From a virus (Duplodnaviria > Heunggongvirae > Uroviricota > Caudoviricetes), in IMG/VR virus record IMGVR_UViG_2737471821_000008: 16,452 nt of DNA; one strand, 5' to 3'. The notes beneath the pieces were generated by a model. That model did not search any database. It was not told where the DNA came from and saw only the letters and a list, made by a program, of their open reading frames with translations. Position numbers and translations under genes: made by a program. This document shows, one piece after another, positions 406 to 16,452 of the stretch (positions within the stretch are counted from its first letter, which is position 1; each line of letters begins with the position of its first letter).

Positions 406-616
406 CTAAAGTTGGATACTTAAGAAATGCTTCATAATTCAGTAAGGCATTAGCATAATGGAAATAAAAGTGCAGAGACTATCTCTATGGATGATTAATA
501 CTGTCTTTTTATTGTCACCCATAAATAATCACCAGACTAATACTATCAACTTGATATTTGAAATGTGATCACTTGACTTTTGATACGTTATTTTATAACG
601 GTTAACATATTTATAA

Positions 617-662: not shown

Positions 663-1104
663 TATTTTGGTTTAGTCATCATCCGGTTATATGTATTTTA
701 GCCAGGAACAGGTTAAATCATTCCTATATAACTCAAAAATTGAAACCTTATTCTCATGTCATGCTTATATTCATTATTATCGTTATATAAAAAGGCAACC
801 ATAATGTTTAGCAAATTGGCACAAAGTAGCATAAAGGCTATGTTTTAATTACAGGATGTTCAGTCATTTGAATGTATAACATTATAGCTAAACAAATCTA
901 AAACGAAGTCAATAATTTATTGCTTTCACAAAATCTCATTTTGTTTAACATCCATTGAGATTCCTTGCTTTAAATTTTATTTTATATAAGCCATCATTTT
1001 AATTAATTTATTTTTTTGAGGGGGGGGTAATATACTCATATGCAAAATCAAGAAATAAACATCCTAATGAACCATATTAAATACCGTGGGATAAGACATA
1101 ACAA

Positions 1105-1428
1105 ATGAAGTGGATAGTAATTGACACGGTAATTCAACCTACATGTGGTATATCTTTTTCAGCCATATGGGGTAATATGAAAATGATCATCTGGTATCAA
1201 TCTACTATATTTCTCCCTCCTGGCAGTATATTTACACCGGTTAAGTCTGGTATTATCCTTAAGGATAAAGAATATCCTATTACTATTTATCACATCGCAC
1301 CATTCAACAAGGATTTATGGAGTTTACTCAAAAGCAGTCAAGAGTGTCCTCCAGGAGAAAGCAAAATAACAAATAAATGTTTACATAATAGTTGCATTAT
1401 AAAAATATGCCCATATGGGCTCAAGTAA
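1105..1428 (+). CDS. iraM: Anti-adaptor protein IraM (stabilises RpoS by inhibiting RssB)
   Basis: 107-aa ORF with ATG start, [22 protein letters not shown]..., recognised as IraM. Lies between ycgX and the icd fragment as in K-12. AT-rich, about 38% GC on a sampled line. Confidence 0.7.
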
Positions 1429-1480
1429 TGGGCTTCATATAAATATGCTCGATATGCTATTAATAATATCCACATAAATA

Positions 1481-1525
1481 AAACAACGGGCGTGTTATAC
1501 GCCCGTTTCAATATTTAACACATGG
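1481..1525 (+). repeat. Direct repeat copy 2 (authentic icd 3'UTR and terminator)
   Basis: Immediately 3' of the icd stop codon (1531..1533 on the - strand). Pairs with 617..662. Confidence 0.6.
1485..1507. terminator. Bidirectional rho-independent terminator (icd terminator; also downstream of iraM)
   Basis: Stem AACGGGCGT / ACGCCCGTT with loop GTTAT. On the - strand it is followed by GTTTTATTTAT (U-tract), on the + strand by TTCAATATTT. Confidence 0.6.
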
Positions 1526-1530
1526 AGAGA

Positions 1531-1695
1531 TTACATGTTTTCGATGATCGCTTCACCAAACTCTGAACATTTCAGCAGCTTAGCGCCTTCCATCAGACGT
1601 TCGAAGTCATAAGTTACGGTCTTGGCATTGATTGCGCCTTCCATACCTTTAACAATCAGGTCAGCCGCTTCAGTCCAACCCATATGGCGCAGCAT
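1531..1695 (-). pseudogene. icdC: Displaced 3' fragment of isocitrate dehydrogenase gene (icdC-type), prophage attachment junction
   Basis: The - strand translates to [54 protein letters not shown], the Icd C-terminus. icd similarity ends abruptly at about 1695. No start codon or upstream icd sequence. Confidence 0.85.
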
Positions 1696-1928
1696 TAGTT
1701 AGATGACTAAATCATAACTATTTGACATAGCAACATAATTTTACTAATTTGCATATAACTCATTAGCTCTTAGCATTTCTATAACTCATTGATTATAAAC
1801 ATGTGTTTTTGAGTTTTGATAACCATTTTTAGCATAAAAATAGCTGTTAACATTTGCAGAAATTAAGATCAGAGAAAATTTTTACCCTGTAGGGTATTAC
1901 GTCTTAAATGTGACTTTAATAAACAATT

Positions 1929-2762
1929 TTATTTCTGTAATCGGTTTATATTAACGTAAAGCATCTCGATTAGTTCTTTTGCATTTTTACTATAGTGTAA
2001 TTCTCTATGACAATTCGGACAAAGGGCAACACAGTTATCTGTTGTATCAGCACCACCTGAAGACAGGGGAATTACATGATGCACTTCCAAATATGGGTTT
2101 CCATCATTTAAATAAAACGGAGCATTTTTACCACAGTTTTCACATATACCTTTACTTTGCTGTAAAATCCAAGCTTTTACCATCGGGTCTCGAACATAAA
2201 CTTTTTGTAGTCTTTCTACCTCAACTGGTTTCCTGGAGCCCTCGGGTTGACTCAACGTTTTCTTAATTAATTTACTAACCCTCATATTCAGAAGCGATTC
2301 ATCATCTGTAGGCTGTGAAAGCTCTGATAGTTCTCCACGTATTATAGACGCCCAAAAACTGTCACTATAAATTCCTGGAACATTTATCAATATTCGTTTC
2401 GTTCTATTGCCGGAAGGAATTTCCTTTCTCCCCGTACGACTAAAATAAGCCTGATAACCACACATCTTCAAGCGTATATCGCGGGGGCTATTACCAATCA
2501 AAGTAAAATATTCACCAGGATGGATTTTTCTTTCATCCAAAGAATGCATATGTTTTCTGACTGATGATGACGCCAGATATACTACGACTTGGGATACACC
2601 AGAATCAACCAACCGTTCAATGATATAATCAAGAGCGATATTGTAATCTTTGTTTCTGTCACCCGGCCCCCACGACTCAAGGATTAGACCATAAACACCA
2701 TCCTCTTCACCTATCGAGCACTCAGCTTTCAGTTCAATTCCATTATTATCAAAAACATGCAT
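1929..2762 (-). CDS. mcrA: 5-methylcytosine-specific restriction endonuclease McrA (HNH family)
   Basis: 277-aa ORF with ATG start. C-terminal HNH motif ...CENCGKNAPFYLNDGNPYLEVHHVIPLSSGGADTTDNCVALCPNCHRELH. Recognised as McrA. GC about 45% on sampled lines. Confidence 0.9.
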   Translation of the reverse strand: MHVFDNNGIELKAECSIGEEDGVYGLILESWGPGDRNKDYNIALDYIIERLVDSGVSQVVVYLASSSVRKHMHSLDERKIHPGEYFTLIGNSPRDIRLKMCGYQAYFSRTGRKEIPSGNRTKRILINVPGIYSDSFWASIIRGELSELSQPTDDESLLNMRVSKLIKKTLSQPEGSRKPVEVERLQKVYVRDPMVKAWILQQSKGICENCGKNAPFYLNDGNPYLEVHHVIPLSSGGADTTDNCVALCPNCHRELHYSKNAKELIEMLYVNINRLQK

Positions 2763-2868
2763 AATATTAATCTTTAATCAATTTTTCACGACAATACTAC
2801 TTTTATTGATAAAATTGCAACAAGTTGCTGTTGTTTTACTTTCTTTTGTACACAAAGTGTCTTTAACT

Positions 2869-3423
2869 TTATTTATCCTCTGCAGGAAACCTCTTATACA
2901 AAGTTGACACACCAACATCATAGATAATCGCCACCTTCTGGCGAGGAACTCCTGATGCAATTAATCGTCCGGCCTGTGCCCATTGTTCTGGTGTAAGTTT
3001 GGGACGACGTCCACCAATTCGCCCCTGTGCGCGAGCAGCTTCCAGTCCAGCTTTTGTTCGTTCAACAATCAGTTCACGCTCCATTTCAGCCAGGGCACCC
3101 ATCACATGAAAGAAAAAGCGTCCCATTGGTGTGCTGGTATCAATTGAATCCGTCAGACTACGAAAGTTGATGCCTCGTTCGCGCAACTCCTCCACCAACA
3201 CGACAAGATGCCGCATACTACGCCCCAGCCGATCCAGCTTCCAGACAACCAGAGTGTCACCTGCCGATAATGTCCTGAGCAGTTTTTTCAGTCCCGGCCT
3301 TTCGGACTTTGTGCCGCTTATCTTGTCTTCAAAAATCAGCTCGCATCCTGCACAGTTCAGCGCATTACGTTGTAGATCTGTGTTCTGGTCATTTGTTGAT
3401 ACGCGTACATAGCCAATAAGCAT
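2869..3423 (-). CDS. pinE: Serine DNA invertase Pin (Gin/Hin/Cin family)
   Basis: Start placed at the internal ATG giving MLIGYVRVSTNDQNTDLQRNAL... (184 aa), the typical invertase N-terminus with catalytic Ser in RVST. The ORF track begins 12 codons upstream at 3459. Confidence 0.9.
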   Translation of the reverse strand: MLIGYVRVSTNDQNTDLQRNALNCAGCELIFEDKISGTKSERPGLKKLLRTLSAGDTLVVWKLDRLGRSMRHLVVLVEELRERGINFRSLTDSIDTSTPMGRFFFHVMGALAEMERELIVERTKAGLEAARAQGRIGGRRPKLTPEQWAQAGRLIASGVPRQKVAIIYDVGVSTLYKRFPAEDK

Positions 3424-3477
3424 GGTAGCTCCCCCTGACAAAAGCAGGAATGATGCCATTTGCTCGTTATTTCTGCA

Positions 3478-3503
3478 TTTTCATAAACGTTGGTTTGGGA
3501 GAA
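3478..3503. repeat. Pin recombination (crossover) site, pin-proximal copy
   Basis: TTTTCATAAACG-TT-GGTTTGGGAGAA resembles the 26-bp gix/hix architecture. The inner half-site GGTTTGGGAGAA is a perfect inverted repeat of 5362..5373. Confidence 0.7.
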
Positions 3504-4022
3504 GGTGCTCCAGCTATTGGCGTTCCGTTCTTCTGGCCGTCCGCCGCAATGCCAAATACTGTAATCGACAGTTGGTCCAGTATGGTGTTTTTGAAGTTCA
3601 ACGGCGCGAAATTCTCTGCCACTGATTACCCTGTGCTGGCGAAAGTGTTTCCGGCGCTAGCATTACCTGACGCACGGGGTGATTTCATTCGTATCTGGGA
3701 TGATGGGCGCGGGATTGATGTCGGACGTACCCTACTTTCAGGGCAATCACACACAATTATGGATCATGCACACAATATGGAATTGTGGACGGGGGACGGG
3801 CTTGCCGCAGGAAGTGCACGGGAAGGAGTAAACCCAGGAATACTGGCTACATACGGTGACGGGGGAATAGTTAAAACGGACGAACCCGGTCTTAAGGTGC
3901 CTTCCTCACTACGAGCTCTTAGCTCTCGTAGTGTTAAACGTTATGGTGAAATTAGTGGAAATGTAGATACAGAAACCCGTCCACGAAATATTGCATTCAA
4001 CTTTCTGGTGAGGGCTAAATAA
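3491..4022 (+). pseudogene. stfE: Silent alternative tail-fibre C-terminal cassette (StfE-type variable domain), in-phase with the stfP constant region after inversion
   Basis: ORF 3450..4022 runs through the crossover site (…VGLGEGAP…) and ends …ETRPRNIAFNFLVRAK, a typical fibre C-terminus. The ATG at 3450 lies outside the segment and is not a real start. The core TT occupies codon positions 2 and 3 in both cassettes. Confidence 0.65.
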
Positions 4023-4615
4023 TGATACCTGTTTTTGATGAAAATGGGCTGGCTACAGTGCCGGGCGATATGCGTTGTTTTTATTATAATGCAGTAACGT
4101 ATGAATATACCGGCTGGTCTGATGAATATATTAATACTGGCGTAAGTATACCCGCCTGTTCCACTGGTATTGACCCGGGCGAAAACATCCCGGGAAAAGT
4201 GGCAGTATTTACGGGTAAGGGATGGAGCCATGAAGAAGACCATCGCAATGAGACCGTTTACTCAACTGAAAATGGCGCAGCTGTTACAGTGGATTATATC
4301 GGTGCCATCAAAGACGGTTATGTCACGCTTTCACCGTTAACGCCATACGATAAATGGGATGGTGAGAAATGGGTGACGGATACCGAGGCACAGCATAGCG
4401 CCGCAGTAGAAGCGGCAGAAGCACAGCGCCAGTCGCTGATTGATGCTGCAATGGCTTCCATCAGTCTGATTCAACTGAAATTACAGGCTGGGCGGAAGCT
4501 GACGCAGCCAGAAAACACCCGACTTAACGCTGTGCTGGATTACATTGACGCGGTGACGGCAACAGATACCAGCACAGCGCCGGATGTCATCTGGCCTGAA
4601 CTGCCGGAGGCGTAG
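4022..4615 (+). CDS. tfaE: Tail fibre assembly protein (alternative cassette partner)
   Basis: 197-aa ORF, ATG overlapping the cassette stop (TAATG). Tfa-family conserved C-terminus …TSTAPDVIWPELPEA. Confidence 0.8.
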   Translation: MIPVFDENGLATVPGDMRCFYYNAVTYEYTGWSDEYINTGVSIPACSTGIDPGENIPGKVAVFTGKGWSHEEDHRNETVYSTENGAAVTVDYIGAIKDGYVTLSPLTPYDKWDGEKWVTDTEAQHSAAVEAAEAQRQSLIDAAMASISLIQLKLQAGRKLTQPENTRLNAVLDYIDAVTATDTSTAPDVIWPELPEA

Positions 4616-5024
4616 GCCATTCAATATCTGGCGCACCGGAAGTATCGATCAGCTCCAGTGCGTCCAGATAATCCAGCCACAAATTATATTGCGCCAGTTC
4701 ATCACCTTTCAGACGACCAATAGCGGCTTTACCGGGCCATTGCTTACTGTTCATGTATTCGTTGGCCTGATTAAGCAATAATTGCCTTTCTGATTCTGCC
4801 TGTTGAATAAGTTCTTCATGTGATGGTGGAGGTATTAGTGCCCATGTGGGTAATCCATTTTTTCCTGCAACACGAATTTTGTCATCTGGAGGCGTATTGA
4901 TTGCAAATTCATTATAAACATCATCACTGACAGCCAGAGCATCATCTGGCCATGAATTTGCATTAATGTAATCATCCTTAAGTGCAGGATTCACAAAAAT
5001 GTTTAAAGATGGACTATAAAACAT
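4587..5024 (-). CDS. tfaP: Tail fibre assembly protein (expressed orientation)
   Basis: 145-aa ORF immediately after stfP (TAATATG junction). C-terminus …TSGAPDIEWPTPP is similar to TfaE. Its 3' end overlaps tfaE convergently over 4587..4615. Confidence 0.8.
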   Translation of the reverse strand: MFYSPSLNIFVNPALKDDYINANSWPDDALAVSDDVYNEFAINTPPDDKIRVAGKNGLPTWALIPPPSHEELIQQAESERQLLLNQANEYMNSKQWPGKAAIGRLKGDELAQYNLWLDYLDALELIDTSGAPDIEWPTPPAVQAR

Positions 5025-5025
5025 A

Positions 5026-5664
5026 TTACACCCCTATAGCGATATAACGACCTAATACAGCGTTTGCAGCAGTCGCTATGCTTGAAAAACCGCGGAACTG
5101 ATTTGATGTAATTGCAGAAGCCGACAGGATTCCTGCGCCTGAAGGTGTATGCCCCACATGACTAACTATCATTCCATAACATGCTGACGGAAAGGCAAAA
5201 GGAAAATCGTTAAGATATCCGGCATCTTCACCACCAGACCCACCAAATCTCGCCTGCCCCCACTGAATAATCAGTGTTCTCCGGGAACCTGAAATAATTA
5301 ACGGGATCGTTACATACCCATTCAGGCCAATGACACCCGATGCAGTGCCAGCCAGAGATAATTCTCCCAAACCAAGGTTTTCGAGAGCCGTTTTCACCGT
5401 GCCATCCGATTTGATATCGCCAAACGGATTCTTGCGGCTTAACAGCAGCGCACGAAGCGCGGTAAGCAGCTGGTCGTGCCGCCCCTTCTCCAGGCTGGCA
5501 CCGGATGCCTCCACCACGCTGCAAAGCTCCTCCTGCAACATGTCAAAGTAGTCATCATCCAGATCGGTGGCAGGCGTGCCGGTCTGGGGGTTACCACGGG
5601 TAAAACCGTTCTTACCCGCGCCGAACTTATCCTTCTGCGCGGTTTTCGTGTCTATACGATGCAT
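5026..5664 (-). CDS. stfP: Side tail fibre protein (constant N-terminus outside, variable C-terminus inside the invertible segment)
   Basis: 212-aa ORF with ATG start. N-terminus …GNPQTGTPATDLDDDYFDMLQEELCSVVEASG… is typical of phage fibres. The crossover site lies at codons …LENLGLGE. Confidence 0.8.
   Translation of the reverse strand: MHRIDTKTAQKDKFGAGKNGFTRGNPQTGTPATDLDDDYFDMLQEELCSVVEASGASLEKGRHDQLLTALRALLLSRKNPFGDIKSDGTVKTALENLGLGELSLAGTASGVIGLNGYVTIPLIISGSRRTLIIQWGQARFGGSGGEDAGYLNDFPFAFPSACYGMIVSHVGHTPSGAGILSASAITSNQFRGFSSIATAANAVLGRYIAIGV
5362..5387. repeat. Pin recombination (crossover) site, distal copy inside stfP
   Basis: TTCTCCCAAACC-AA-GGTTTTCGAGAG. Its reverse complement matches the 3478..3503 site. 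Confidence 0.7.
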
Positions 5665-5667
5665 GGA

Positions 5668-6252
5668 TTACTCCGGATATTTAAAAATTACGTAGGTATG
5701 CGACGGGCAGAGTTTGTTAAGCACACATTCGACAACTGTGTCGCCCCAGATACGCAGTGCGGAATCACAGGGATCGCCACATGTCATCCAGGTGGTGTTG
5801 GTGGCGGCTGGCATGTTGACCTGCCAGTAATACCGCCATTCAGGCGCGTTCACAGCGTCAGTACAGGCCGATGAGCAGGTGAACGTGCTTTTGTCGTATC
5901 GCTTGATGGTGGCATCTGGTCTGCCCAGGGCAGCAAGCTGTGCAAGATAAAAATCCTCGTTGATGCCGCCCGCCAGGTTAACCTTCGCATCCAGCCGTTG
6001 CTGACGCTGGCGAAGGGTCTGTGTCCCTGCGGGAATACATTCATCCGGCAGACCGCACAGACGCTCCCAGCGGTTTATCAGTTCAGTGGTGGTGCGCGGA
6101 TCCAGCTCCCGCATCAGGGCATCCGCACGCTGATGAACGCGGGTTAATGACGGTGCCGCACCGGCAATCGCCGGATCGCTGGCTGACCACGCCGGACCGG
6201 GGGGCAACAGTGCTGACAACAGACGGATGTAATCATCGTTTGTCACGTCCAT
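5668..6252 (-). CDS. ymfQ: Phage tail/baseplate protein YmfQ (DUF2313, Mu gp48-like)
   Basis: 194-aa ORF with ATG start, directly upstream of the fibre gene and overlapping the baseplate-J gene end. Recognised as YmfQ. Confidence 0.7.
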
Positions 6253-7301
6253 GAAATCGTCCCCAGTACCGCCAGTTCATTTTTTGCAATGGAGATATTG
6301 TCTGCCGGTGCAAGCAACTGATGGCTGTATTCCCCGTTCGCACCGGAAATCGCCTCACTGATACGCGATACCTTCAGTTCTCCCTGCGGATAACCATCAC
6401 GCAGCAGGAACGAACGCAACTCCGCGGTGATGGCAGCCCGTATTTCCGGTGTGTCCGGCGTCACACGGATATGAAAATCCACCGTATGTGCCACCGGCCT
6501 GAACACATACAAATCAGAGCCTGCCACCGGGGCCAGTGGCTCGATATGTTGTCTTGCCGCCGTTTCCGTTGATTCTTCCGGAATGGGATTAATCAGGTCA
6601 CTGCTGGCAATCATCACACCGACAGTTCCCGTTCCCATCCAGTGACGGTATGTCCATGCGCGGGTAATGCCGGGCACTTCTTTAGCCCAGACAACATAGT
6701 CCCCGTCAGCCCCGCCCTGCGGCGTCCAGTAATACCGCTCAATGACGCGGGCGCGCCACGTTTCCAGCTCTTCAGTATCAAATCCGCCTGTCAGGGTGTC
6801 AGCCACACCGGAAGACGGCAGACCATTCACCGGCGTGACCAGGATTAATGCCGTACCGTCGTCAGCATTACCGACCGCACCTGCACTTGAGCAGGCGATC
6901 GGCACGCGCAGGACACCACCGGAGCTGGTTGCATCGTCAGTTGTCGTGTACTGCACCAGGTCATCGCGCTGAATAACACTCCCGGCGGTCACCTTCAGGC
7001 CATCGCTGACACCTTCCCAGCGCATATACCCACTGGCAACCGTGGCTCCCTTGCGCGGACACCGTTTCATCGCAGCATGTCGCGCCAGCCAGGACTCATC
7101 GCACAGGTCAGGCAGCATGTTCATTGCCAGATAATCGATGTAACCGTAAACCGTATGCAGCGCCGCCGCATACACCTTTGCCCGCACGTCTTCATCCATG
7201 CGCCGGAGCGTGTCGCTGACGTCCAGCCTGGCGAATAAATCGTTACGGAGCATACTGATATTTTCTGCCAGCGTCGGGCGCTGAAATTCACTGTCCGCCA
7301 T
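6243..7301 (-). CDS. jayE: Baseplate J-like protein (Mu gp47 / P2 gpJ family)
   Basis: 352-aa ORF with ATG start. Position and size fit the baseplate wedge protein that precedes gp48-like and fibre genes. The symbol follows e14 nomenclature from memory. Confidence 0.7.
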
Positions 7302-7602
7302 GCGTTATCGCACTCCACAGATCATCAAAAGAAATCATTACCGGTCCGTCACGACGCCAGAGGGTGATACTGTTACCCAGTTCATTAATCCCGGTGCGGC
7401 GGATATCCAGATCAATACGGGACACCACGCCGTCATCAATCATCCATTGCAGGCATTCGCGGATACCCGCCCCGGCAGCGCCCAGAGCAAGGCTGGAGAC
7501 TTCTTTCTGAAACCCCTTAAGCTGACGCTGCATACCTTTAAGCGGGCCGGACAGCCTGTCAACGGCGGTGATGATGGCTTTCAGCTGAAAATTATCAGCC
7601 AT
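7288..7602 (-). CDS. Short chimeric ORF: tape-measure-like N-terminus joined to an unrelated C-terminus (probable deletion product)
   Basis: Strong SD (GAGGAG, 7-nt spacer) and ATG. N-terminus MADNFQLKAIITAVDRLSGPLKG fits the usual tape-measure start, but the ORF is only 104 aa and its end overlaps the baseplate-J start. Confidence 0.4.
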   Translation of the reverse strand: MADNFQLKAIITAVDRLSGPLKGMQRQLKGFQKEVSSLALGAAGAGIRECLQWMIDDGVVSRIDLDIRRTGINELGNSITLWRRDGPVMISFDDLWSAITHGGQ

Positions 7603-8010
7603 GCTTCATCTCCTCATTTATACGGACGGCCTCTGCCTCCAGATCAGCAAAGTGGGAAATAGCCGTCCGGCGAAGTTCAAGGGGGTTTAATTTCCAGAAC
7701 CACGCGACATTGTAGAATCGCTTCCGGAGGTCTCTTCCGTCTCCAAGCCGGTAAAAAAACGCATTACAATCATGCCTGCCTTGAAAATATCCAGCTTCGT
7801 CATCTGCGCTGCAGACGAGCGCGGGATCCCGGCCAGAAGCGGGATATATTTCAGCGCTACCTGACTGTCCATTTTCATACCACCATCAGGTGAAACAGAG
7901 AAAGGGAACCCCAGCGCCTCAATCTCGTCATACGTAGGCTCACGTATTTCCAGCACATGCAGTGTTTCTTTGTGGGCGATGATCGGTTTTTTAAGTACAA
8001 GCTCAATCAC
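7595..8010 (-). CDS. Tail assembly chaperone, long form made by -1 programmed frameshift (G/GT or E/E' type)
   Basis: From the slippery site the -1 frame stays open for 52 codons (YRLGDGRDLRKRF…EEMKHG*) and stops at 7595..7597, just inside the next gene start. This is the standard chaperone to tape-measure layout. Confidence 0.45.
7687..8010 (-). CDS. Tail assembly chaperone, short form
   Basis: 107-aa ORF. Its first codon is GTG, overlapping the tube gene stop (GTGA). Sits between the tube and tape-measure positions. Confidence 0.5.
   Translation of the reverse strand: MIELVLKKPIIAHKETLHVLEIREPTYDEIEALGFPFSVSPDGGMKMDSQVALKYIPLLAGIPRSSAAQMTKLDIFKAGMIVMRFFTGLETEETSGSDSTMSRGSGN
7753..7759 (-). 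other. Slippery heptamer U-UUU-UUU for -1 ribosomal frameshifting
   Basis: Coding strand CGT TTT TTT ACC (R F F T) in the chaperone 0-frame, 22 codons before its stop. Confidence 0.45.
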
Positions 8011-8363
8011 TGGTAATCCCCTTCTTCACCGTGGAACTCAAGATCAACCGTGCCTTCTTCGGCATTATGGTTCGCTTCGCCGTGCAGCCAGGCAGACGAC
8101 AGTACATAGACCTGACCGTTCGCCAGCTCGGCAGTGATGGTCATCTCATCAGACGAGGTGATTTTGCTCACCGGAAAATTCTTCGGCACCTTGAAGGTCC
8201 CTTTGACATAGGGCGCACGGTGAGTTTCCTTGCGGTCCACTGAACCGTCCAGGCCGATGATGTCATCATTGACCGTCCTGTTCATGGGCACCTCAATGCC
8301 GCCGGTCAGCGATAGCTGCTGACCGTCAATTTTGAAATAACAGGTTCCCCCGATACGGGCCAT
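8007..8363 (-). CDS. Tail tube protein (Mu gpM-like)
   Basis: 118-aa ORF with ATG overlapping the sheath stop (TAATG). Size and position immediately after the sheath gene. Confidence 0.6.
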   Translation of the reverse strand: MARIGGTCYFKIDGQQLSLTGGIEVPMNRTVNDDIIGLDGSVDRKETHRAPYVKGTFKVPKNFPVSKITSSDEMTITAELANGQVYVLSSAWLHGEANHNAEEGTVDLEFHGEEGDYQ

Positions 8364-9859
8364 TATGCAGACTCCTCTGAATACTGAAGACGGAACTGGT
8401 TAACCACGGCAAAGACACGCAACTGGTTAACATAGTCAGGCGGGAACAGCGTGTTCAGGCGGTTCGGATCGCTGGCATCACGCTCCACAACCAGGTACTG
8501 CTTAAACAGTTCGTAGTTTTCCACGATCCCCGCACGCTCAAGCTGACGGTAGGTTGCCAGCAGTTCCCCTTTGATCACCGCCGGGGTGACAATCGCCTGA
8601 CCGGGACCAAAGCGGGTACCGTCACTGGCAAGCTTGTGACGCCCGTACTTACTGGTAATGACGGATTTCAGTTTGCGCAGTACATACGCGCTGGTATGCA
8701 GTGTCTCACTGTCGAGGTAGCTGTTATCCGCAACCCCGTAAGCGTTTTTCCTGTACGTGGTGACATCACGCTGAATGCGCAGTACCCCGCTTTCGACATA
8801 CGCCGTTGCCACGCCATGAGACAGCAGGGTCTGTTGTTCGGTCATCGTGAACCGTTTCCCCTTCGGCGCAGGCAGCATACCCACCATCTCACCGGTCTGC
8901 GTGGGACGTGCCGGATCGTTGCGGATAAACACCGCTGCGCGGGCGGTACGGCTGGCTGCCAGCTCGTCGGCAGGCGTCTGGGTCTCTTTTTCGTACCCCG
9001 CCAGGGTGATGTGCTGCTGGTTAAACTGGTCACCTGCGTTCACCAGTTCTGACAGTGTGCCGGCCTTTGCCGTATACACATGACCATACAGCTGACGCGC
9101 ATAGCTCCAGCGACCGCTGGTATCGTTCATCTCGGTCACCAGCGTGTTAACAGAGGCCGTGTCGTTGAACGGCAGACCGATATAATCAAACGGCTCATCC
9201 GCCATTGCAGCCACCGCGCCGGTGAGAACCGGAGCGCCCGTTCCGGCGGTCCCCGTCGCCACGGCAATCTGTACGCCCGCTGGCAGCACTTCGCCCCCAC
9301 CGAAGCCGTAGTAATTGAGGCTGACAGGAATTTCATTCCCGCAAAGCCCCTTATGGCGAGCGGTCAATGTAACCACACCAGCCGAAGATGAGGCCGTAAA
9401 CGGCAGGGCCGGAACGGCATTGATGGCATCTTTGATACTGCTGGCAATCGTCGCGACGTTATCGCCGTTGGTCACCGGTGCCTGCACGCGGGTACGTCCC
9501 ACATAAACATTCACCGTGCCGGTTTCGGTTGCTGCCCCGGTCACCGTCAGCGTAACTGTTGCCGCCGCGCCTGTGGATTCAGGAACGGCAATCACATACA
9601 GCTCGCCAAACGGGTCAGTCTGGCGATAAGCCTCGACCATACGCGCCAGCTGACTTCCCGCACCACAAATCTGGCGTGCATAGTCTGCCGACGGCATCAG
9701 TACCAGACTGTTGGCAACAATCTCTGCACCGTTATTGGCATGACCAATCAGCAGCGATGCTCCGCTGTCCTGTGCAGTATTCGCCGCCTGATTATCCATT
9801 TCCGCATAAAACAGCGGAACCAGCGTATTCGACGGAATGGTGTTAAAGCTTATCGTCAT
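8363..9859 (-). CDS. Contractile tail sheath protein (Mu gpL-like)
   Basis: 498-aa ORF with ATG start, MTISFNTIPSNTLVPLFYAEMDN…, of the size and character of Mu-type sheath proteins. Confidence 0.8.
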   Translation of the reverse strand: MTISFNTIPSNTLVPLFYAEMDNQAANTAQDSGASLLIGHANNGAEIVANSLVLMPSADYARQICGAGSQLARMVEAYRQTDPFGELYVIAVPESTGAAATVTLTVTGAATETGTVNVYVGRTRVQAPVTNGDNVATIASSIKDAINAVPALPFTASSSAGVVTLTARHKGLCGNEIPVSLNYYGFGGGEVLPAGVQIAVATGTAGTGAPVLTGAVAAMADEPFDYIGLPFNDTASVNTLVTEMNDTSGRWSYARQLYGHVYTAKAGTLSELVNAGDQFNQQHITLAGYEKETQTPADELAASRTARAAVFIRNDPARPTQTGEMVGMLPAPKGKRFTMTEQQTLLSHGVATAYVESGVLRIQRDVTTYRKNAYGVADNSYLDSETLHTSAYVLRKLKSVITSKYGRHKLASDGTRFGPGQAIVTPAVIKGELLATYRQLERAGIVENYELFKQYLVVERDASDPNRLNTLFPPDYVNQLRVFAVVNQFRLQYSEESA

Positions 9860-10013
9860 CGGTGTTCACCTTTTTATTCACGCGCCGGATATCACCCGCT
9901 ACTTCACGGCGCAGCCAGTAGTTGTTCTCGTCAACATTTCGCCCTTCGGCGGGCAAAAGGTCGCCGCGGGCAGGGTCAGGAACTGACCGCCCTTTAACAG
10001 GTTTGACAAACAT
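9843..10013 (-). CDS. Small conserved Mu-like tail-module protein (DUF2635-like); absent from the ORF track (under 60 aa)
   Basis: Hand translation gives 56 aa, MFVKPVKGRSVPDPARGDLLPAEGRNVDENNYWLRREVAGDIRRVNKKVNTDDDKL*. SD GAGGA sits 5 nt before the ATG. Overlaps the sheath start by 17 nt. Confidence 0.4.
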   Translation of the reverse strand: MFVKPVKGRSVPDPARGDLLPAEGRNVDENNYWLRREVAGDIRRVNKKVNTDDDKL

Positions 10014-10021
10014 GAGGATCC

Positions 10022-10582
10022 TCAGGAAGGAAGGGTTATTTCGGTGTGATGTTCGATATCGCCGTCAGGCCCGTTACCGGGCTCGAGATAATCAACATCA
10101 ATCGCCAGCGTTTGCAGTTCATCCAGACTGTTCAGATCATCCTGCTGGCGGGTATCGTCTTCAGTCAGCTCGCTGATGACCGAAAAATCGAACTGATAAA
10201 TCAGCTCATGACGATTCAGATCCAGCAGCGTGCCGCCGTCATAGGTAATCGGGTTACCGCACGCTTCCGGGTTCCAGCCCAGCAGGGCCTTAAAGAGCAT
10301 CTGCCGGACATCGTCCACCACATCATACGAGGCAAACTGACCGCGCTCATCACGCCCGTTACTCAGTATGACAACCACGGAGAAGCCCTCTTTCAGCTCC
10401 TGCCAGTAGTCGGTCTGGCTTTTGTTTTCTCCCGGAGAGTCATCACCCGGTACCACATACGCCGCCGGGAGTCTCAGCTTTCCGACCTCCGGCAGATTTT
10501 TGAACTGGGCCGCGCCTGCCACCCGGTTTTCAAAATACGGGCAGCGGGCACGCAGCGCAGCAATAACAGGCGTCAGTTTCAT
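10022..10582 (-). CDS. Virion morphogenesis / head-tail joining protein (Mu gp37-like)
   Basis: 186-aa ORF, MKLTPVIAALRARCPYFENRVAGAAQF…, with ATG overlapping the upstream remnant stop (ATGA). Position matches the gp36-gp37-gp38-sheath order. Confidence 0.5.
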   Translation of the reverse strand: MKLTPVIAALRARCPYFENRVAGAAQFKNLPEVGKLRLPAAYVVPGDDSPGENKSQTDYWQELKEGFSVVVILSNGRDERGQFASYDVVDDVRQMLFKALLGWNPEACGNPITYDGGTLLDLNRHELIYQFDFSVISELTEDDTRQQDDLNSLDELQTLAIDVDYLEPGNGPDGDIEHHTEITLPS

Positions 10583-10674
10583 CTGTGTCGTCGCTCCGGC
10601 TTCAGTGATTTACGCAATTCCCGCGCCAGAAAATAGCGTGTCCAGCTGCGGTTCTTTTCAAGAGTTTCCACCAT
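10579..10674 (-). pseudogene. C-terminal remnant of the gene preceding gp37-like (deletion scar)
   Basis: Only about 31 codons (…MVETLEKNRSWTRYFLARELRKSLKPERRHR*) are plausible protein. Upstream in the same frame the translation is low-complexity (GGAKRRRSHHRGASGGSG). Confidence 0.3.
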
Positions 10675-10789
10675 GAAGTTATTACGTGGAGCCAGTCGCC
10701 AGCCGCTGCCACCGGATGCACCACGATGATGACTACGACGACGTTTTGCTCCTCCCCGGACACCAAAAAACAGAAATGCCGGATAGAAG

Positions 10790-11110
10790 TCACCAGAGAT
10801 CATCCGGTTCGCGCAGACCGTCTTCACGGCCTTTACGCAGGAAGCCCACAAACGCCTCTTTATGCTCGGTGGCCAGTTTATTTTGCGCTCCACCAGCCGG
10901 ACGTTTCAGCTCAAGCAGCTCTTTTTCAAGGTCGCTTTTGAGATTTTCCAGCTCGCTGAGTTTCCCGTTCAGGGTTTCCACCTGCCCGGCAAGCTTGCCT
11001 TTTTCCTGCTCAATCGCATCCACGCGCTTGTCGTTCTTTGCTTTGAAGTCGTCAAACTTCTGCTGCAGCTCCTGCGCGACCTGTTCGACATCTTTAATAT
11101 CAACCGCCAT
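10790..11110 (-). pseudogene. Major capsid protein, N-terminal fragment only (HK97-type delta domain)
   Basis: Strong SD (AGGAGA) and ATG right after the protease gene. 106 aa of coiled coil (…VETLNGKLSELENLKSDLEKELLELK…EHKEAFVGFLRKG) then a premature stop. No capsid body is encoded downstream in any frame. Confidence 0.55.
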
Positions 11111-11124
11111 CGTATTTCTCCTGA

Positions 11125-11775
11125 TTAGAAGTTCAGATTTTTCAGTGCATTCAGTGCAGAGCCCACATCCTCAGCGTCGCGCAGGGACAGTGCGCCATAG
11201 CCCCCGGCCATGAATGCTTTGGCCTGGGTACGGGAGAGTCCGACATCACGCAGGACTCTTTCGATTTTTTTCTGTTCGGGGATTTCCCCGCGGGCCAGTG
11301 CGTTCTTGACGTCGCTGATCCGCGCCTCGTCGTTAGACGGGAACGTCACCAGGCTGACTTCCCAGAGGTCGATTTCTTTCAGCAGAAAGGCTTCTTTGCT
11401 CCGGTCGTATTCCCAGTCTTTCAGGACGTACCCAATAGAAAGGCCGGTTAACGAACCGGCCTTCATGTGTGCATGTGCGCGTTTTGCGAGGGGATCATCA
11501 TCAATAAGCAACCGTCCCCTGACGTAAAGCCCGACATCGTCTTCCTTCATTTCGGTGTAAACACCGATGGGTTCATCCATGCGGTGCTGCCAGAGCAGCG
11601 CAGGTAACGCTTTTCTGTCACTCCACGCCCGCAGGGAAGCAGCAAATGCCCCGGACATCACCACATCATCGTGGCTGTCCTTTACACCAAAGACGGAGCC
11701 ATACCCTTCAAACTCACCGGAGTCACTGACAGATTTCAGACTCAGCGGTACATCAAGACGTTGTTTCGTCTGCAT
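11125..11775 (-). CDS. Prohead protease (HK97 family)
   Basis: Start placed at MQTKQRLDVPL… because SD AAGGA precedes it. The track's start at 11811 has no SD and overlaps the portal by 59 nt. Confidence 0.7.
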   Translation of the reverse strand: MQTKQRLDVPLSLKSVSDSGEFEGYGSVFGVKDSHDDVVMSGAFAASLRAWSDRKALPALLWQHRMDEPIGVYTEMKEDDVGLYVRGRLLIDDDPLAKRAHAHMKAGSLTGLSIGYVLKDWEYDRSKEAFLLKEIDLWEVSLVTFPSNDEARISDVKNALARGEIPEQKKIERVLRDVGLSRTQAKAFMAGGYGALSLRDAEDVGSALNALKNLNF

Positions 11776-12994
11776 TGGCGTTATCCTTCTGCTTACCGGC
11801 TTTACTGCCATCGGAGGGTTTCGTGGTCATGTTCATCGGTGTGAGATAGACATCACCACCGGGACGCGGATTCATATCTTCCAGGTCGCGGCAGTCATTG
11901 GGAGAGTAAATTCCCCAGTTGATCCCGGTGGCGTAGGCTTCAAAACGGGACTTCATATCCCCGCGCAGTAACGCCCCGGCGTTAAATTTGGCGTAATAAA
12001 CGCCCTGCTTACTTTTTCGTACCAGTCCGGTGTTGATCCGCTGTTCGATGCGGGTCAGATACGGCACCAGTGAATAGTTGATAAATCCCAGCCCCAGCTC
12101 TTCGATATTGTTGAAGGTGGCGCGATCGGTGTTCTGCACCATGTGCAACGGCACCCGGAACAGACGACAGATTTCTTCAAGCTGAAACTTGCGGGTTTCC
12201 AGGAACTGGCTGTCCTCGGCGTTCAGCGCCATCGACTTCCAGTCCAGCCCCATCTCAAGGATCATCGGGCGGTGAGCATTGCCAAGCCCGGTGTGACGCT
12301 CCTCAAAATCTTTCTTCAGGCGCTCATAAGCCTGATCTGACAGCGTCTGCTCTGTACGCAACACACCCGACGTCACCGCGCCATTGCTGAACAGTCTGGC
12401 CCCGTGCTCTTCGGTCGCAGCTGCCAGCGATATTGCCTCGCGGGCATAGGCGATGGGATTCAGCCCCACCAGTCCGTCCAGCGTCAGCGTGCGCACATGC
12501 CAGATATCCTCCTGGCTCAGTACATCCGTGGAGCCATCCGGGAATGTGACCTGATAGATCGGCTCCCAGCTACTGTTAAGCTTCGGTACCACACAGCCGG
12601 GATCGACAGGCAGCAGTTCAGCCACTTCGCCAAATGCTTTCACTTTGTAGGCGTAAAAGTTTCCCCGCAGGCACAGACAGGTGACCACCAGCTCCCAGAA
12701 CTCCTGCGGCGTCATATAGCCATTGGGATGCGTGGAGATCAGTTTATGCAGACGTTCGCCGGTGGCTCTCTGCTTCAGGCTGCCGTTCAGGTGATACAGA
12801 TTGCAGGGCAACATCCCGACCGACTCTGCCAGCACTCTGACGCAGGAAAAAACCGCCGTCAGTCGCATGGCCCGCTGACTGCTGATCTGCTTTCCGGTAT
12901 AGGTGTCGTAGGACAACCCGATGGCATCCGCCAGCTCTGCTGGCGTGGTCACCGGTGCGTCACTTTTTCGTTGAAATAATCCCGAAAAGAACAC
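11753..12994 (-). CDS. Portal protein (HK97 family)
   Basis: 413-aa ORF with GTG start preceded by GGAGG (6-nt spacer), overlapping the stop of the upstream small gene. Portal-family conservation throughout (…PIAYAREAISLAAATEEHGARLFSNGA…). Confidence 0.85.
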   Translation of the reverse strand: MFFSGLFQRKSDAPVTTPAELADAIGLSYDTYTGKQISSQRAMRLTAVFSCVRVLAESVGMLPCNLYHLNGSLKQRATGERLHKLISTHPNGYMTPQEFWELVVTCLCLRGNFYAYKVKAFGEVAELLPVDPGCVVPKLNSSWEPIYQVTFPDGSTDVLSQEDIWHVRTLTLDGLVGLNPIAYAREAISLAAATEEHGARLFSNGAVTSGVLRTEQTLSDQAYERLKKDFEERHTGLGNAHRPMILEMGLDWKSMALNAEDSQFLETRKFQLEEICRLFRVPLHMVQNTDRATFNNIEELGLGFINYSLVPYLTRIEQRINTGLVRKSKQGVYYAKFNAGALLRGDMKSRFEAYATGINWGIYSPNDCRDLEDMNPRPGGDVYLTPMNMTTKPSDGSKAGKQKDNANADETTS

Positions 12995-13176
12995 TATTTA
13001 CCTCCACCAACAGACAGCTGTGTACGGTCGAGATATCGCGCTACCAGCCACGACCAGAACAGGCACAACGCCCCGGCAACAACAAACCCCGCCGGGGGAT
13101 AAATCAGCCAGGCACCATACGCCAGCAAAAGCGCCCCCAGCACGCCCACCAGAGGCGCGAGAATCAGCATGATCAT
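12994..13176 (-). CDS. ymfR: 60-aa predicted two-helix membrane protein between terminase and portal (YmfR-like)
   Basis: ATG with [67 protein letters not shown] has two hydrophobic stretches. Symbol from memory of e14 YmfR (60 aa). Confidence 0.5.
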
Positions 13177-13187
13177 AATTACCTCAG

Positions 13188-14921
13188 TTAAAGCGAGCGG
13201 ATCCCATAGGACTCAATGTGGTCAGACAGCGTGTCTTCTTTCTCGTACAGCATGGCTCTGCCAACCGCCATAATCAGCGCAACTGCACCGTCAATTTTGT
13301 TTTCCGCCTGCTCTTTGACGGGTTTCACCACATCATCGTTACCCGGAATGGTTTTGCCGACCACATTGCCGATACACCAGGTCATGATGGGATTGCCATC
13401 ATGATGAAAGCGCCCCGATTCAATTGCCGCTTCCAGCTCTTTCATCGGGTCGGACATGTTGGTGTAGTTCTGAATGATAGTGACGGGATTCAGGTCTTCA
13501 TCAGCAAGGTCATGTGACAACCCGGTCGCCCCGAAGGGGTCGATGGGTGACTCACTGACCGGGCTGATTTTGTTCGCCGCTTTGGCCTCCTCGAGGATGT
13601 AGCGATAATCCACCTCCGCACCATCGGTAACGGTCAGAACGCCCATTTCCACCCATTTCTGAAAGCGTTCGGCTGTCCGGCGATCTTCATTTTTCTCGAC
13701 GCTGTACACCGTGTCATACGGTACCCAGAAGCGCGGAGCCACACTGTAGTAATGCGTTTTACCGTCAATCTCGCGGGTATAAAGTCGCGCCATGCTGTTC
13801 ATATCCAGCTTACGCGCCAGGTCAAAGGCCAGAATGCACGGTTGCCCCTCGAACTGCTCAAGGGTCAGTGATTTATCCTCGCAGCTCTGCCAGCTCACCA
13901 GGTTGAAATACGCCGAACGCGCCGACACCCAGATATTGAGGTGTTTTGTTTTAAAGACGTTTGCCAGACGGGCGTTATTTTTCGCACGCTGCTGCTGACT
14001 TAACAAAAATTCGCGATAAACCGACACGCCAATATTCGGGTTAGCTTTTTCCAGCACCTGCGGGTCGGTCCAGTCATCGCCTTCGTCAACGGTATAGATG
14101 ATCCCGAACAGTTCATCGTTGGGTACCGAACCGTTGAGCATCTCGATAACTTCCCGCCGCTTGTCGTAGCACGGCCCCTCAATGTTGTACCCGGCGGTGG
14201 TGATGGCCCACATCAGTGGCTGACGTCGCGCGCCCATCCCGGTAAGCATCGTGGTATAAAGCGCATCGGTGGCGTGCTCGTGATATTCATCCACCACCGC
14301 ACAGTGGGGTGATGAACCATCACCGGGGTTACCGATCAGCGGTTCAAACCGCGCGCCATCCTCCGGACGGTTCATGTTTGAGGCGTTAACCTCAATCCCG
14401 AACGCTTCCGTCAGCATGGGTGTGCGTTTACACATCAGTCGCGCCGGGCGAAAGACTTCCCACGCCTGTTTCTCTGTCGTGGCACCGGAATACACTTCCG
14501 CGCCAAACTCGTTATCACAGGCAAAACAATACAGGGCAACACCGGCAGAGATTGCCGATTTGCCGTTCTTACGGGGGATTTCGGTATACACCTCCCTGAA
14601 GCGGCGCAGCCGGGAGCCTTTATTGACCCAGCCAAACGCACAGCAGATCACAAAGAGCTGCCACGGTTCCAGCGTGATGGGCATCCTCTTGAATGCCCAC
14701 TCCCCCTTGGTGTGTGGCAACAGCTGAATAAATTTCGCGGCCCGTTCAGCCAGGTCCTTGTCGAAGCGGTAACGAAACGACTTACTTTTTTCCGCCATCA
14801 GGTCATCAAGATGGCGCTGGCAGGCCTGAATCACAAACTGGCAGGCCACAATCTTTCCGCGCACGACATCACGGGCATACTGATTGGCAGCATTTACGTT
14901 GGGGTAAGATTTCCGGCTCAT
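13188..14921 (-). CDS. Terminase large subunit
   Basis: 577-aa ORF with ATG overlapping the TerS stop (ATGA). N-terminal ATPase region (…[18 protein letters not shown]…AVVDEYHEH…) and C-terminal nuclease domain. Confidence 0.9.
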
Positions 14922-15412
14922 GATTCGATGATTTTCAGAAACGGGTTAGTGGCTTTCTTCTGCCCCGCCAGGCCAATCAGACGCTGGCGGCTGCTGGGGT
15001 CGAGTCCGAGCATTGCCCCCGTGCTGCTCATCTCGGACTCCTGTTCTTTCTTGGCGGTCAGCTCCGGATTTTTGACCATGCCACCCATTGCACCGGTGAT
15101 GGTGTTGCCCTGTCTGGCAATATTTTTCACGGCACGCCGCCAGAACTCGTAGGCCACGCACCACCGCTCAAGCACCGCGAGGTCAGTCACGCACAGCAGG
15201 CCCTGACCGCAGAGTTCTTTGGTTGTCAGTTGCCACATGATCGTGGCGAGAGGGAGATCTTCTTCAGCGAACCACTCCGGTGGCTCAACACCTTTGATGG
15301 GCGTAAAAACAGGTTCATCTTTATTCAGGGCTCGCTTGCCGGGGTTTCCGGCCAGCGCCTTGCGCGCCGTTGGCTTGGGGCGACGCCCGGAACGCCCCGC
15401 CGTTCCAGCCAT
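14918..15412 (-). CDS. Terminase small subunit (P27 family)
   Basis: …[34 protein letters not shown]… is the P27-family signature. I chose the ATG at 15412 (SD AGGAG, 8-nt spacer) rather than the track's GTG at 15421. Confidence 0.7.
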
Positions 15413-15462
15413 ATGCGGCACTCCTGGTTAAATTTCATTTTTCGCGGGTATAAAAAAACGAT

Positions 15463-15511
15463 GGGGCGGGCAGTCCGGAAGACGTCAGGTCACAGGGATT
15501 TGACCCGCCCC
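15463..15511. other. GC-rich inverted repeat in the HNH-TerS intergenic region (candidate cos / packaging-initiation region)
   Basis: GGGGCGGG at 15463..15470 and CCCGCCCC at 15504..15511 flank a 33-bp spacer containing the palindrome GACGTC. A T7 run follows on the - strand. Confidence 0.3.
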
Positions 15512-15537
15512 TCCCCTCTGGCAGTGGGAACTGGTTC

Positions 15538-15888
15538 TTACTTAATCCGTTCACGGGCCGTCTTCGCCTTATGACACGGCCAGCACAGACTCTGCAGATT
15601 ACAGTCGGCATCAGTGCCGCCATGCGCTTTAGGGATGATGTGGTCAACAGTTTTCGCCTCACGCACCACACCAGCGCGCAGACATAACTGACATAAACCT
15701 TTGTCACGTTTCAGCACACGCGCGCGGATAACGTCCCACTTCGAACCGTAGCCGCGCTGATGACGGGATTGTCCTGGCTTGTATTGCTTCCAGCCTTCGC
15801 TTTTGTGGCTTTCGCAATAACCTGACGGGTCAGTGGTGGTACGGCGGCACCCGCGAACACGGCAGGCTTTTGGAGTTCGTGGTGGCAT
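15538..15888 (-). CDS. HNH endonuclease (packaging-associated)
   Basis: 116-aa ORF with ATG start, Cys-rich with the motif …DHIIPKAHGGTDADCNLQSLCWPCH…. Immediately upstream of TerS as in HK97-like packaging modules. Confidence 0.85.
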   Translation of the reverse strand: MPPRTPKACRVRGCRRTTTDPSGYCESHKSEGWKQYKPGQSRHQRGYGSKWDVIRARVLKRDKGLCQLCLRAGVVREAKTVDHIIPKAHGGTDADCNLQSLCWPCHKAKTARERIK

Positions 15889-15919
15889 TGAAGAAAACTC
15901 TTTGTAATAAGCATAAAAA

Positions 15920-15936
15920 CCCCATATTGAATGGGG
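15920..15936 (-). terminator. Rho-independent terminator downstream of the 168-aa gene
   Basis: On the - strand, stem ATGGGG/CCCCAT with a 5-nt loop followed by TTTTTAT, beginning 10 nt after the stop codon at 15946..15948. Confidence 0.5.
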
Positions 15937-15945
15937 CTTGATGAA

Positions 15946-16452
15946 TTACTGTCCTAAAGCACTTTTTGCCAATATTGAAGCAATTGAAGCAAACGTCGGA
16001 TTTTCCAATAGCTTTTGCCAAAGGCTTTTAACCTCTGGATCATTGCAATGCTCTATAGCATCATGTAGTTGTTGAATGGTTATATTCTTTGTGATCGAAT
16101 TGTCATTACCGGCTTGAAAATCACCACCAGCATTAATAGCACCGTTAAACGTCAAATGGGTCGTAATCTGCTTCGGCTTCTCTTTTACATCCAATGCCTT
16201 CACTATCAATACCGCCAAATGTGAGTAGCCAGGGCAACCAGCCTCGAGACTAATTTGTACCTCGTAATCAAGCACTTCAAATAGTCTTTCCCTGTCGACC
16301 ATTTTTTGCACAATGATATCGCCGATATTAAATGGACATAAGTCACTTTCAATAAGAATATACAATCGACCTTTAGATGAGTCACGTTGACCATAATAGG
16401 TGGATGAATTAAAGGTAAAAGTATCTGGATAGAAAAATTGATCTGGTCGCAT
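15946..16452 (-). CDS. Hypothetical 168-aa protein (AT-rich moron upstream of the packaging module)
   Basis: Complete ORF, ATG at the window edge. MRPDQFFYPDTFTFNSSTYYGQRDSSKGRLYILIESDLCPFNIGD… has no motif I recognise and no hydrophobic helices. GC about 35-38% on sampled lines. Confidence 0.55.
   Translation of the reverse strand: MRPDQFFYPDTFTFNSSTYYGQRDSSKGRLYILIESDLCPFNIGDIIVQKMVDRERLFEVLDYEVQISLEAGCPGYSHLAVLIVKALDVKEKPKQITTHLTFNGAINAGGDFQAGNDNSITKNITIQQLHDAIEHCNDPEVKSLWQKLLENPTFASIASILAKSALGQ

Follow-up and report, generated by a model that had tools for sequence, protein, structure and literature searches.

The analysed stretch of DNA, 16,452 nucleotides long and hereafter called the window, is best explained as the attR-side arm, bearing the late genes, of a lambdoid myovirus prophage of the e14/SfV family with icd as its integration site, and we put the probability of this explanation as a whole at about 0.9. 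The element appears to be a recently grounded prophage, predicted from its gene content to be unable to make virions. Its ancestor would have been a complete prophage of ~39.6 kb like that of E. coli PSS-08-2, which two illegitimate-recombination deletions at very short microhomologies would then have disabled. The element is a cousin of e14 of E. coli K-12, a cryptic prophage reportedly described as icd-integrated by Mehta, Casjens and Krishnaswamy in 2004, and it retains more genes than the K-12 copy. K-12 e14 would be a separate, more diverged member of the family, from which a 12.7-kb block over the same region was lost in one independent deletion. Prophages of this type are well known, and the element is an ordinary one of a kind already known.

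Integration site, cargo and invertible segment

By BLAST, positions 1-3505 match the K-12 region from ycgX to pinE, which includes icdC, at 99.2% identity; K-12 e14 occupies the same insertion site, with icd', mcrA, pinE and the invertible segment in the same run. At the prophage end the icd' fragment adjoins iraM, a hallmark of the e14 family, and positions 1480-1695 match the 3' end of icd proper at 87% identity (BLAST). The cargo and late end typical of the family, namely mcrA, pinE and the Pin-invertible fibre segment, are all present (Table 1). The phage genes beyond the cargo are likewise homologous to K-12 e14, at 97.7% over 5362-7030 (ymfQ and baseplate J) and 97.2% over 12587-14324 (portal, ymfR and the terminase large subunit, TerL), a divergence of ~2.5% overall. 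An Rfam scan of the whole window gave no match at the gathering threshold.

The invertible segment has imperfect 19-bp inverted repeats at its ends (3485-3503 and 5362-5380) and holds two alternative fibre C-termini, each with an assembly gene. Its orientation in the window is opposite to that in every relative fetched, the PSS-08-2 prophage included, and its content differs from that of the K-12 segment, which matches only window 4334-4742, at 89%.

Head and tail genes

The packaging and head genes are of HK97 type, comprising both terminase subunits (TerS and TerL), the portal, an S78 prohead protease and an HK97-fold capsid protein. The best solved relative of the portal is 8CEZ (E=1e-51), which we take to be the HK97 portal, and the family's full major capsid protein matches chains labelled 'HK97 family' (E=1e-75), although the window keeps only 100 of its 401 residues. 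The contractile tail is of Mu type, as judged from the sheath, tube, chaperone, GP46, baseplate J and Mu gp48 family members identified; 9KHY, the match of the sheath, is a phage Mu structure, and the 98%-identical phage vB_EcoM-720R4 has genes annotated as homologues of Mup38-48. The order expected from Mu gp37-48 is terminator, sheath, tube, chaperone, tape measure and gp43-48, from which the tape measure and gp43-45 have been deleted in the window. The earlier note had proposed an HK97-like head with a Mu-like tail, and the Pfam assignments, the two structural matches and the vB_EcoM-720R4 annotation agree with it. The genes that it had named in 7288-12994 (portal, prohead protease, capsid remnant, a gp37-like protein, sheath, tube and chaperone) are all found there on the minus strand, the gp37-like protein being the tail terminator, for which the match to the Gp37 family PF09646 (E=0.0014) lies under the family cut-off. 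The same interval also holds three items outside that list, namely the DUF2635 ORF, the C-terminal 76 residues of a Neck1 protein and a tape-measure::GP46 fusion ORF.

Table 1. Features of the window. Family assignments are from Pfam unless noted otherwise; full-length status is from comparison with the intact PSS-08-2 prophage.
Feature	Position	Strand	Basis or remark
ycgX	1-405		host gene outside the element
iraM	1105-1428		host gene outside the element
icd' (icdC), duplicated 3' icd fragment	1531-1695	-	marks attR prophage end; identity to K-12 flank
mcrA, 5-methylcytosine-specific restriction endonuclease	1929-2762	-	e14 cargo; annotated in collinear PSS-08-2 and K-12 stretches
pinE, serine invertase	2869-3423	-	annotation in relatives
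Pin-invertible tail-fibre segment	3485-5380	.	inverted repeats at both ends
Assembly gene of the 212-aa fibre	4587-5024		
Tail fibre gene as assembled in window orientation, 212 aa	5026-5664	-	
ymfQ, homologue of Mu gp48, full length	5668-6252	-	0 amino-acid differences from PSS-08-2 prophage
Baseplate J / Mu gp47 homologue, full length, 352 aa	6243-7301	-	
Deletion 1 scar, in-frame tape-measure::GP46 fusion ORF	7288-7602	-	junction 7464/7465
Tail assembly chaperone, PF10109	7687-8010	-	Pfam
Tail tube protein, PF10618	8007-8363	-	Pfam
Contractile tail sheath, phage Mu sheath homologue	8363-9859	-	chain 9KHY, E=5.9e-80
DUF2635 protein	9843-10013	-	Pfam; Mup38 homologue as annotated in vB_EcoM-720R4
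Tail terminator, PF23840	10022-10582	-	Pfam, E=2e-26
Deletion 2 scar	10579-11110	-	junction 10803-10810
Capsid remnant, residues 1-100 of 401-aa major capsid protein plus 6 out-of-frame residues	10790-11110	-	
Prohead protease, HK97-family, PF04586, 216 aa, full length	11125-11775	-	E=1e-31
Portal, PF04860, 413 aa, full length	11753-12994	-	E=6e-108
ymfR	12994-13176	-	
Terminase large subunit, full length, 577 aa	13188-14921	-	
Terminase small subunit, P27 family	14918-15412	-	
HNH endonuclease	15538-15888	-	adjoins terminase genes

This combination of an HK97-type head with a Mu-type tail is the published "SfV-like" type, a name that Bobay et al. use for lambdoid Myoviridae. The design is shared by SfV, SfI, SfII, SfIV and vB_EcoM-720R4, all of which have 97-98% nucleotide identity to the structural module of the window; these phages are complete and viable, whereas the window element is deleted, sits at icd and carries mcrA and pin. 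The Shigella members have tRNA-thrW as their integration site and bear genes for O-antigen modification (PMC3636060); the same paper, by Sun et al. 2013, includes a full-length 'e14' of E. coli S88 in a comparison with SfI and SfV.

Two deletions relative to an intact icd prophage

As the reference for an intact icd prophage we used that of E. coli PSS-08-2 (NZ_AP027679.1, 1771039-1810616, 39.6 kb), which is bounded by icd, intE and xisE on one side and by icd' on the other; at least 33 complete genomes of E. coli hold intact icd copies. The left arm of the window element, where int, xis, immunity, replication and lysis genes would lie, falls beyond the 16.4 kb covered. The window and this reference agree in gene order, cargo and site, and identity is 99.9-100% over the sequence retained from position 1 to 10810. 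Window 5362-7465 aligns with prophage 17362-19465 (99.9%), 7464-10810 with 24507-27853 (100.0%) and 10803-15888 with 29984-35069 (98.96%); past 15888, where the window has a 168-aa ORF, the sequences are not alike. Two blocks, of 5,041 bp and 2,130 bp, are missing from the window, and they carry genes essential for morphogenesis.

The first deletion (5,041 bp) has its endpoints inside GP46 and inside the tape measure; it took the N-terminal part of the former and most of the latter, and with them baseplate V, the baseplate assembly protein and the DNA circularization protein. The reading frame across its junction was verified, and the resulting ORF joins tape-measure residues 1-46 to the last 58 residues of GP46; annotators should treat it as a deletion scar and not as a gene. 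The second deletion (2,130 bp) reaches from inside the neck/tail-completion gene into the major capsid gene, of which it took three quarters, and it also removed head closure, the head-tail connector and a small ORF. It left the C-terminal 76 residues of the Neck1/tail-completion protein inside 10579-10893 (phrog_879) and, at 10790-11110, an ORF that should be annotated as a capsid stub. Exact microhomology at the junctions is only 2 bp, within 5-7 bp of imperfect homology.

The complete head, neck, tail and baseplate of a viable prophage are thus not found in the window: capsid and Neck1 are truncated, head closure and connector are absent along with most of the tape measure, and the other genes or gene parts taken by the first deletion are missing as well. 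The element is predicted to make no virions, for it is left with neither a capsid protein nor head-tail joining proteins, a tape measure or a baseplate hub. Apart from the ORFs at the scars, the retained genes are full length and free of frameshifts, with 0-2 amino-acid differences from PSS-08-2 and 7 in the HNH gene; that the remaining late genes are still intact would reflect too little time for point mutations rather than a need for their products.

Distribution of the junctions and fate of the retained genes

None of 5,426 complete E. coli genomes spans either junction (queries 7300-7630 and 10650-10960), and the deleted lineage to which the window belongs is known only from draft and SRA assemblies. 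Both junctions lie on identical 11.1-kb stretches (11,091 bp, 100%) in GCA_003775145.1, GCA_013074845.1 and two Logan SRA assemblies. Decay goes on in this lineage: GCA_012750075.1 and SRR1815630 carry junction 1 together with two additional deletions, corresponding to window 7832-8469 and 9039-15749. Genomes with deletion 2 and without deletion 1 were looked for, and none was found.

These sister assemblies bear on the improbable alternative that the remnant has been domesticated, with the HNH-TerS-TerL-portal-protease block or the sheath-tube-terminator block held under host selection, for instance for phage or satellite interference or for borrowing. Such selection could be read into the full-length, frameshift-free state of all retained genes and into the in-frame fusion ORF that deletion 1 produced, but an in-frame junction is expected by chance in one case out of three, and genes essentially identical to those of the intact phage have had too little time for intactness to signal selection. 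Moreover, GCA_012750075.1 and SRR1815630 are already without terminase, portal, protease, tube and most of the sheath, and we rejected selection for the retained blocks as the main reading since the sister assemblies have lost them.

Comparison with K-12 e14

K-12 matches the window at 5362-7030 and 12587-14324 with nothing between (BLAST), so that the equivalent of 7031-12586, ~5.6 kb, is missing from K-12, as is everything past 14324. The genes at these borders, all full length in the window, are cut in K-12: baseplate J is kept only up to the equivalent of window 7030, as jayE, the portal only from 12587 onward, as beeE, and TerL only up to 14324, as aaaE. In MG1655 the annotated order is aaaE, ymfR, beeE (portal fragment), jayE (baseplate J fragment) and ymfQ, which, together with the BLAST gap at 7030/12587, bears out the statement in the earlier note that K-12 e14 passes almost directly from a portal pseudogene to baseplate J and ymfQ. 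The alignments to K-12 e14 and to icd prophages also settle that homology extends past fibre, pin and mcrA, and that the gene content of K-12 is not the same. The description of the element as a less decayed relative of e14 accordingly holds for family, for site and for the additional ~5.6 kb, but the decay appears to have been a separate one, with endpoints at 7464/7465 and 10803-10810 in the window as against 7030/12587 in K-12. The K-12 junction occurs in 284 genomes, and the carriers listed are K-12 laboratory derivatives.

One could instead suppose, as the earlier note did, that the window captures a halfway point in the direct decay of a single lineage into K-12 e14. The two elements have integration site and cargo in common, and the K-12 deletion, equivalent to window 7031-12586, contains both window deletions, whereby junction geometry alone would allow a window-like precursor. 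Against this, the window differs from the intact prophage by 1 SNP in 1738 and 1 in 1669 positions of the shared segments but from K-12 e14 by 49 in 1738 and 39 in 1669, a branching order that could be distorted by recombination between prophages, the family being mosaic. The window neither shares the K-12 endpoints nor stands closer to K-12 than to intact prophages, and among the 5,426 complete genomes its junctions occur in no K-12-type genome. The prophage ancestral to both the window and the intact copy must still have been complete, and it is younger than the split from the K-12 copy; we therefore consider descent of K-12 e14 through such an intermediate very improbable. The SNP counts argue that the window deletions postdate the split from the intact phage, a split that itself came long after the one from the K-12 copy, and the near-identity to an intact prophage, combined with the different endpoints in K-12, points to independent decay of the two elements.

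That assembly errors produced both deletions from an element intact in reality has next to no probability, and an artificial or misassembled window was rejected: absence from all of the complete genomes would fit such an error, but exact-protein look-ups found the junctions in independent draft and SRA assemblies (at 100% over the 11,091 bp; at least three NCBI assemblies and several assemblies of SRA runs, all independent), the two sister assemblies combine junction 1 with further deletions, and the endpoints have no repeats that could collapse an assembly.

Implications

The earlier note expected the element to help in reconstructing the ancestral phage, but it is not needed for this: with intact copies in complete genomes and isolated phages at hand, the window is worse than existing data, and intact icd prophages, vB_EcoM-720R4 or SfI-type phages give a direct reading of the ancestral e14 phage. 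As a long shot, the lineage might serve as a natural time series in which decay can be followed against a nearly SNP-free background, leading from the intact, PSS-08-2-like state through the window type to the GCA_012750075.1/SRR1815630 type; it might then be used to study how fast and in what order deletions accumulate, or to explore whether an intact terminase-portal-protease block is transiently kept by selection, for example through exploitation by satellites or co-resident SfV-like prophages. The element is a textbook case of a prophage turning cryptic, in which point mutations follow only after a handful of microhomology-mediated deletions, and it places K-12 e14 among several copies, each decayed independently, of a phage whose intact form is still in circulation.

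Two deletions relative to an intact prophage

When the whole window was searched by megablast in 5,426 complete E. coli genomes, at least 33 of them had one locus accounting for 80% or more of it; among the matches listed, these loci span 23-25 kb versus the 16.4 kb of the window, and include tape-measure and DNA-circularization genes that are absent from it. The nearest copy is the complete prophage of about 39.6 kb in E. coli PSS-08-2 (L001), flanked by icd, intE and xisE at one end and by icd' at the other. The two are collinear, with 99.9-100% identity outside three differences: the Pin segment (1,896 bp) lies in the opposite orientation, and blocks of 5,041 bp (L001 19466-24506) and 2,130 bp (L001 27854-29983) are absent from the window. 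The first deletion, with endpoints inside GP46 and inside the tape-measure gene, removed the genes for the baseplate V, baseplate assembly and DNA circularization proteins and cut the tape measure down to 46 codons, leaving an in-frame fusion of tape-measure residues 1-46 to the last 58 residues of GP46. The second has its endpoints within the Neck1/tail-completion gene (phrog_879) and within the capsid gene. Head closure, head-tail connector and a small ORF went with it, and of the 401-aa major capsid protein residues 1-100 are left, with six out-of-frame residues after them. At both junctions exact microhomology amounts to 2 bp only, inside 5-7 bp of imperfect homology, a pattern typical of illegitimate recombination and unlike that of site-specific or repeat-mediated events. 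Elsewhere the late genes retain their full length and differ from the intact copy by 0-2 amino acids each, the HNH gene excepted.

Neither junction occurs in any of the 5,426 complete genomes. Exact matching of the fusion protein sequence located it in the NCBI drafts GCA_003775145.1, GCA_013074845.1 and GCA_012750075.1, and also in several assemblies from Logan SRA; at four of the loci the sequence matches window 5362-16452 at 100% identity across both junctions, and the capsid stub was found only alongside the first junction. Two loci, in GCA_012750075.1 (L003, 8520-10315) and SRR1815630 (L008), have the first junction in common with the window and have lost two more blocks (window 7832-8469 and 9039-15749), with new junctions identical in both, which removed the tube, most of the sheath, the terminator, protease, portal, terminase and HNH genes. 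Since the same junctions recur in independent assemblies and nested losses are seen in two, the element is natural and still decaying by nested deletions. The window, L003 and L008 together make up a series of nested decay steps in a background with hardly any SNPs.

The fusion ORF clears the Pfam GP46 gathering score (29.5 versus 28.6 bits) and public assemblies annotate it as a gene, which makes it a likely source of misannotation.

Relation to K-12 e14

The earlier note took this region for a less decayed relative of K-12 e14, caught at an intermediate stage of the same lineage's decay. Its statement that K-12 passes almost directly from a portal pseudogene to baseplate J and ymfQ agrees with the MG1655 annotation (ymfN(oweE/aaaE) - ymfR - beeE - jayE - ymfQ - ycfK - tfaP - tfaE - stfE - pinE - mcrA - icdC). 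By BLAST, K-12 matches window 1-3505 (99.2%), 5362-7030 (97.7%) and 12587-14324 (97.2%), with no match to 7031-12586 nor beyond 14324; homology in the latter two segments thus reaches beyond the fibre, pin and mcrA genes, and the gene content of K-12 differs. We counted SNPs in these two segments, which are common to the window, the PSS-08-2 prophage and K-12 e14. The window differs from the intact prophage at 1/1669 (5362-7030) and 1/1738 (12587-14324) positions, versus 39/1669 and 49/1738 from K-12. The intact prophage groups with the window, K-12 lies outside, and deletions are irreversible; the deletions in the window are therefore later than its split from the intact phage, and on these counts that split must itself be later than the split from K-12's copy. 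K-12 has one deletion, equivalent to L001 19031-31767 (~12.7 kb), whose endpoints are unlike those of the window; its junction is present in 284 complete genomes, and among the matches listed the carriers are K-12 laboratory derivatives. The window and K-12 e14 are thus cousins that decayed independently: kinship and lesser decay hold (97-99% identity in shared segments, 7031-12586 kept), but the SNP counts and differing endpoints contradict a stage on K-12's path.

Head, tail and fibre genes

All genes that had been named for 7288-12994 were identified by Pfam, and the capsid remnant by comparison with the 401-aa protein. Coiled-coil and scaffold-like Pfam noise in the remnant would fit an HK97-style N-terminal delta domain. 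The proposed combination of an HK97-like head with a Mu-like tail is borne out: the sheath is a match to 9KHY, the solved sheath of Mu (E=5.9e-80), the capsid protein of the family matches chains labelled "HK97 family", and the depositors of Escherichia phage vB_EcoM-720R4 labelled its tail genes Mup38-Mup48. The closest solved relative of the portal is 8CEZ, which we take to be the HK97 portal.

Features of the window
Feature	Position	Remark
ycgX	1-405	host gene
iraM	1105-1428	host gene
icd' fragment	1531-1695	prophage starts, after the host genes
mcrA	1929-2762	cargo, intact
pinE	2869-3423	cargo (pin), intact
Invertible tail-fibre segment	3485-5380	followed by fibre N-terminus
Imperfect 19-bp inverted repeats	3485-3503, 5362-5380	ends of Pin segment
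Fibre, window orientation	5026-5664	212 aa
ymfQ	5668-6252	
Baseplate J	6243-7301	
Fusion ORF	7288-7602 (-)	scar of first deletion
Tail assembly chaperone	7687-8010	PF10109
Tube	8007-8363	PF10618
Sheath	8363-9859	three sheath domains (Pfam)
DUF2635 protein	9843-10013	PF10948
Tail terminator	10022-10582	PF23840; Gp37 family match sub-threshold only
Capsid remnant	10790-11110	scar of second deletion
S78 prohead protease	11125-11775	PF04586
Portal	11753-12994	PF04860, E=6e-108
ymfR, then terminase large and small subunits	between 7288-12994 region and HNH gene	
HNH endonuclease	15538-15888	
168-aa ORF	15946-16452 (-)	function unassigned

The host/cargo end has a G+C content of ~31%, which rises to 52-59% across the phage structural genes. 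The Pin segment is flipped with respect to every relative fetched (PSS-08-2 and the draft loci L003-L006) and otherwise identical, the two apparent mismatches lying inside the inverted repeats; in this orientation the expressed fibre is paired with a 145-aa assembly protein. The flip suggests that Pin-mediated inversion is still active in the window's lineage.

At the right end, the 168-aa ORF, placed between lysis genes and the HNH gene, has no Pfam family and matches phrog_5789 (unknown function, E=1.5e-77). The window and PSS-08-2 diverge from 15889 onward, with iss at the matching place in the latter. The HNH product has 7 amino acid differences from PSS-08-2, more than its neighbours (0-2), which suggests a mosaic boundary nearby.

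Known relatives and fate of the element

Allison et al. in 2002 reportedly found the head genes of SfV HK97-like and its tail genes Mu-like, and Mehta et al. in 2004 are said to have analysed K-12 e14 as a deleted relative. Phage vB_EcoM-720R4 is 97-98% identical to window 5362-15888 at 100% query coverage, and the Shigella serotype-converting phages SfIV, SfII and SfI (coverage 91-94%) and SfV (68%) are similarly close. "SfV-like" phages have been defined as lambdoid Myoviridae (PMC3603311), and a gene-by-gene comparison of SfI and SfV with a full-length "e14" from E. coli S88 was published by Sun et al. in 2013 (PMC3636060). Given these matches and descriptions, neither the architecture nor the existence of intact e14 relatives is new. 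A locus in E. coli ST648 (L010, NZ_CP008697.1, 16848-35526) carries the same HNH-TerS-TerL-ymfR-portal-protease-capsid module with a lambda-like non-contractile tail (gpJ, tail proteins L/K/I, Lom) in place of the Mu-like one; head and tail modules of the e14/SfV family have therefore been exchanged by recombination. Part of its portal gene is 100% identical to part of K-12 beeE over 150 bp.

The element is without a complete capsid protein, neck proteins, tape measure and baseplate hub, each of which is essential in HK97-type heads or Mu/P2-type tails, and can therefore assemble no virion. Because there are almost no SNPs relative to the intact copy, and sister assemblies are already without most of them, the retained genes would be neutral passengers, intact only through the recency of the deletions.
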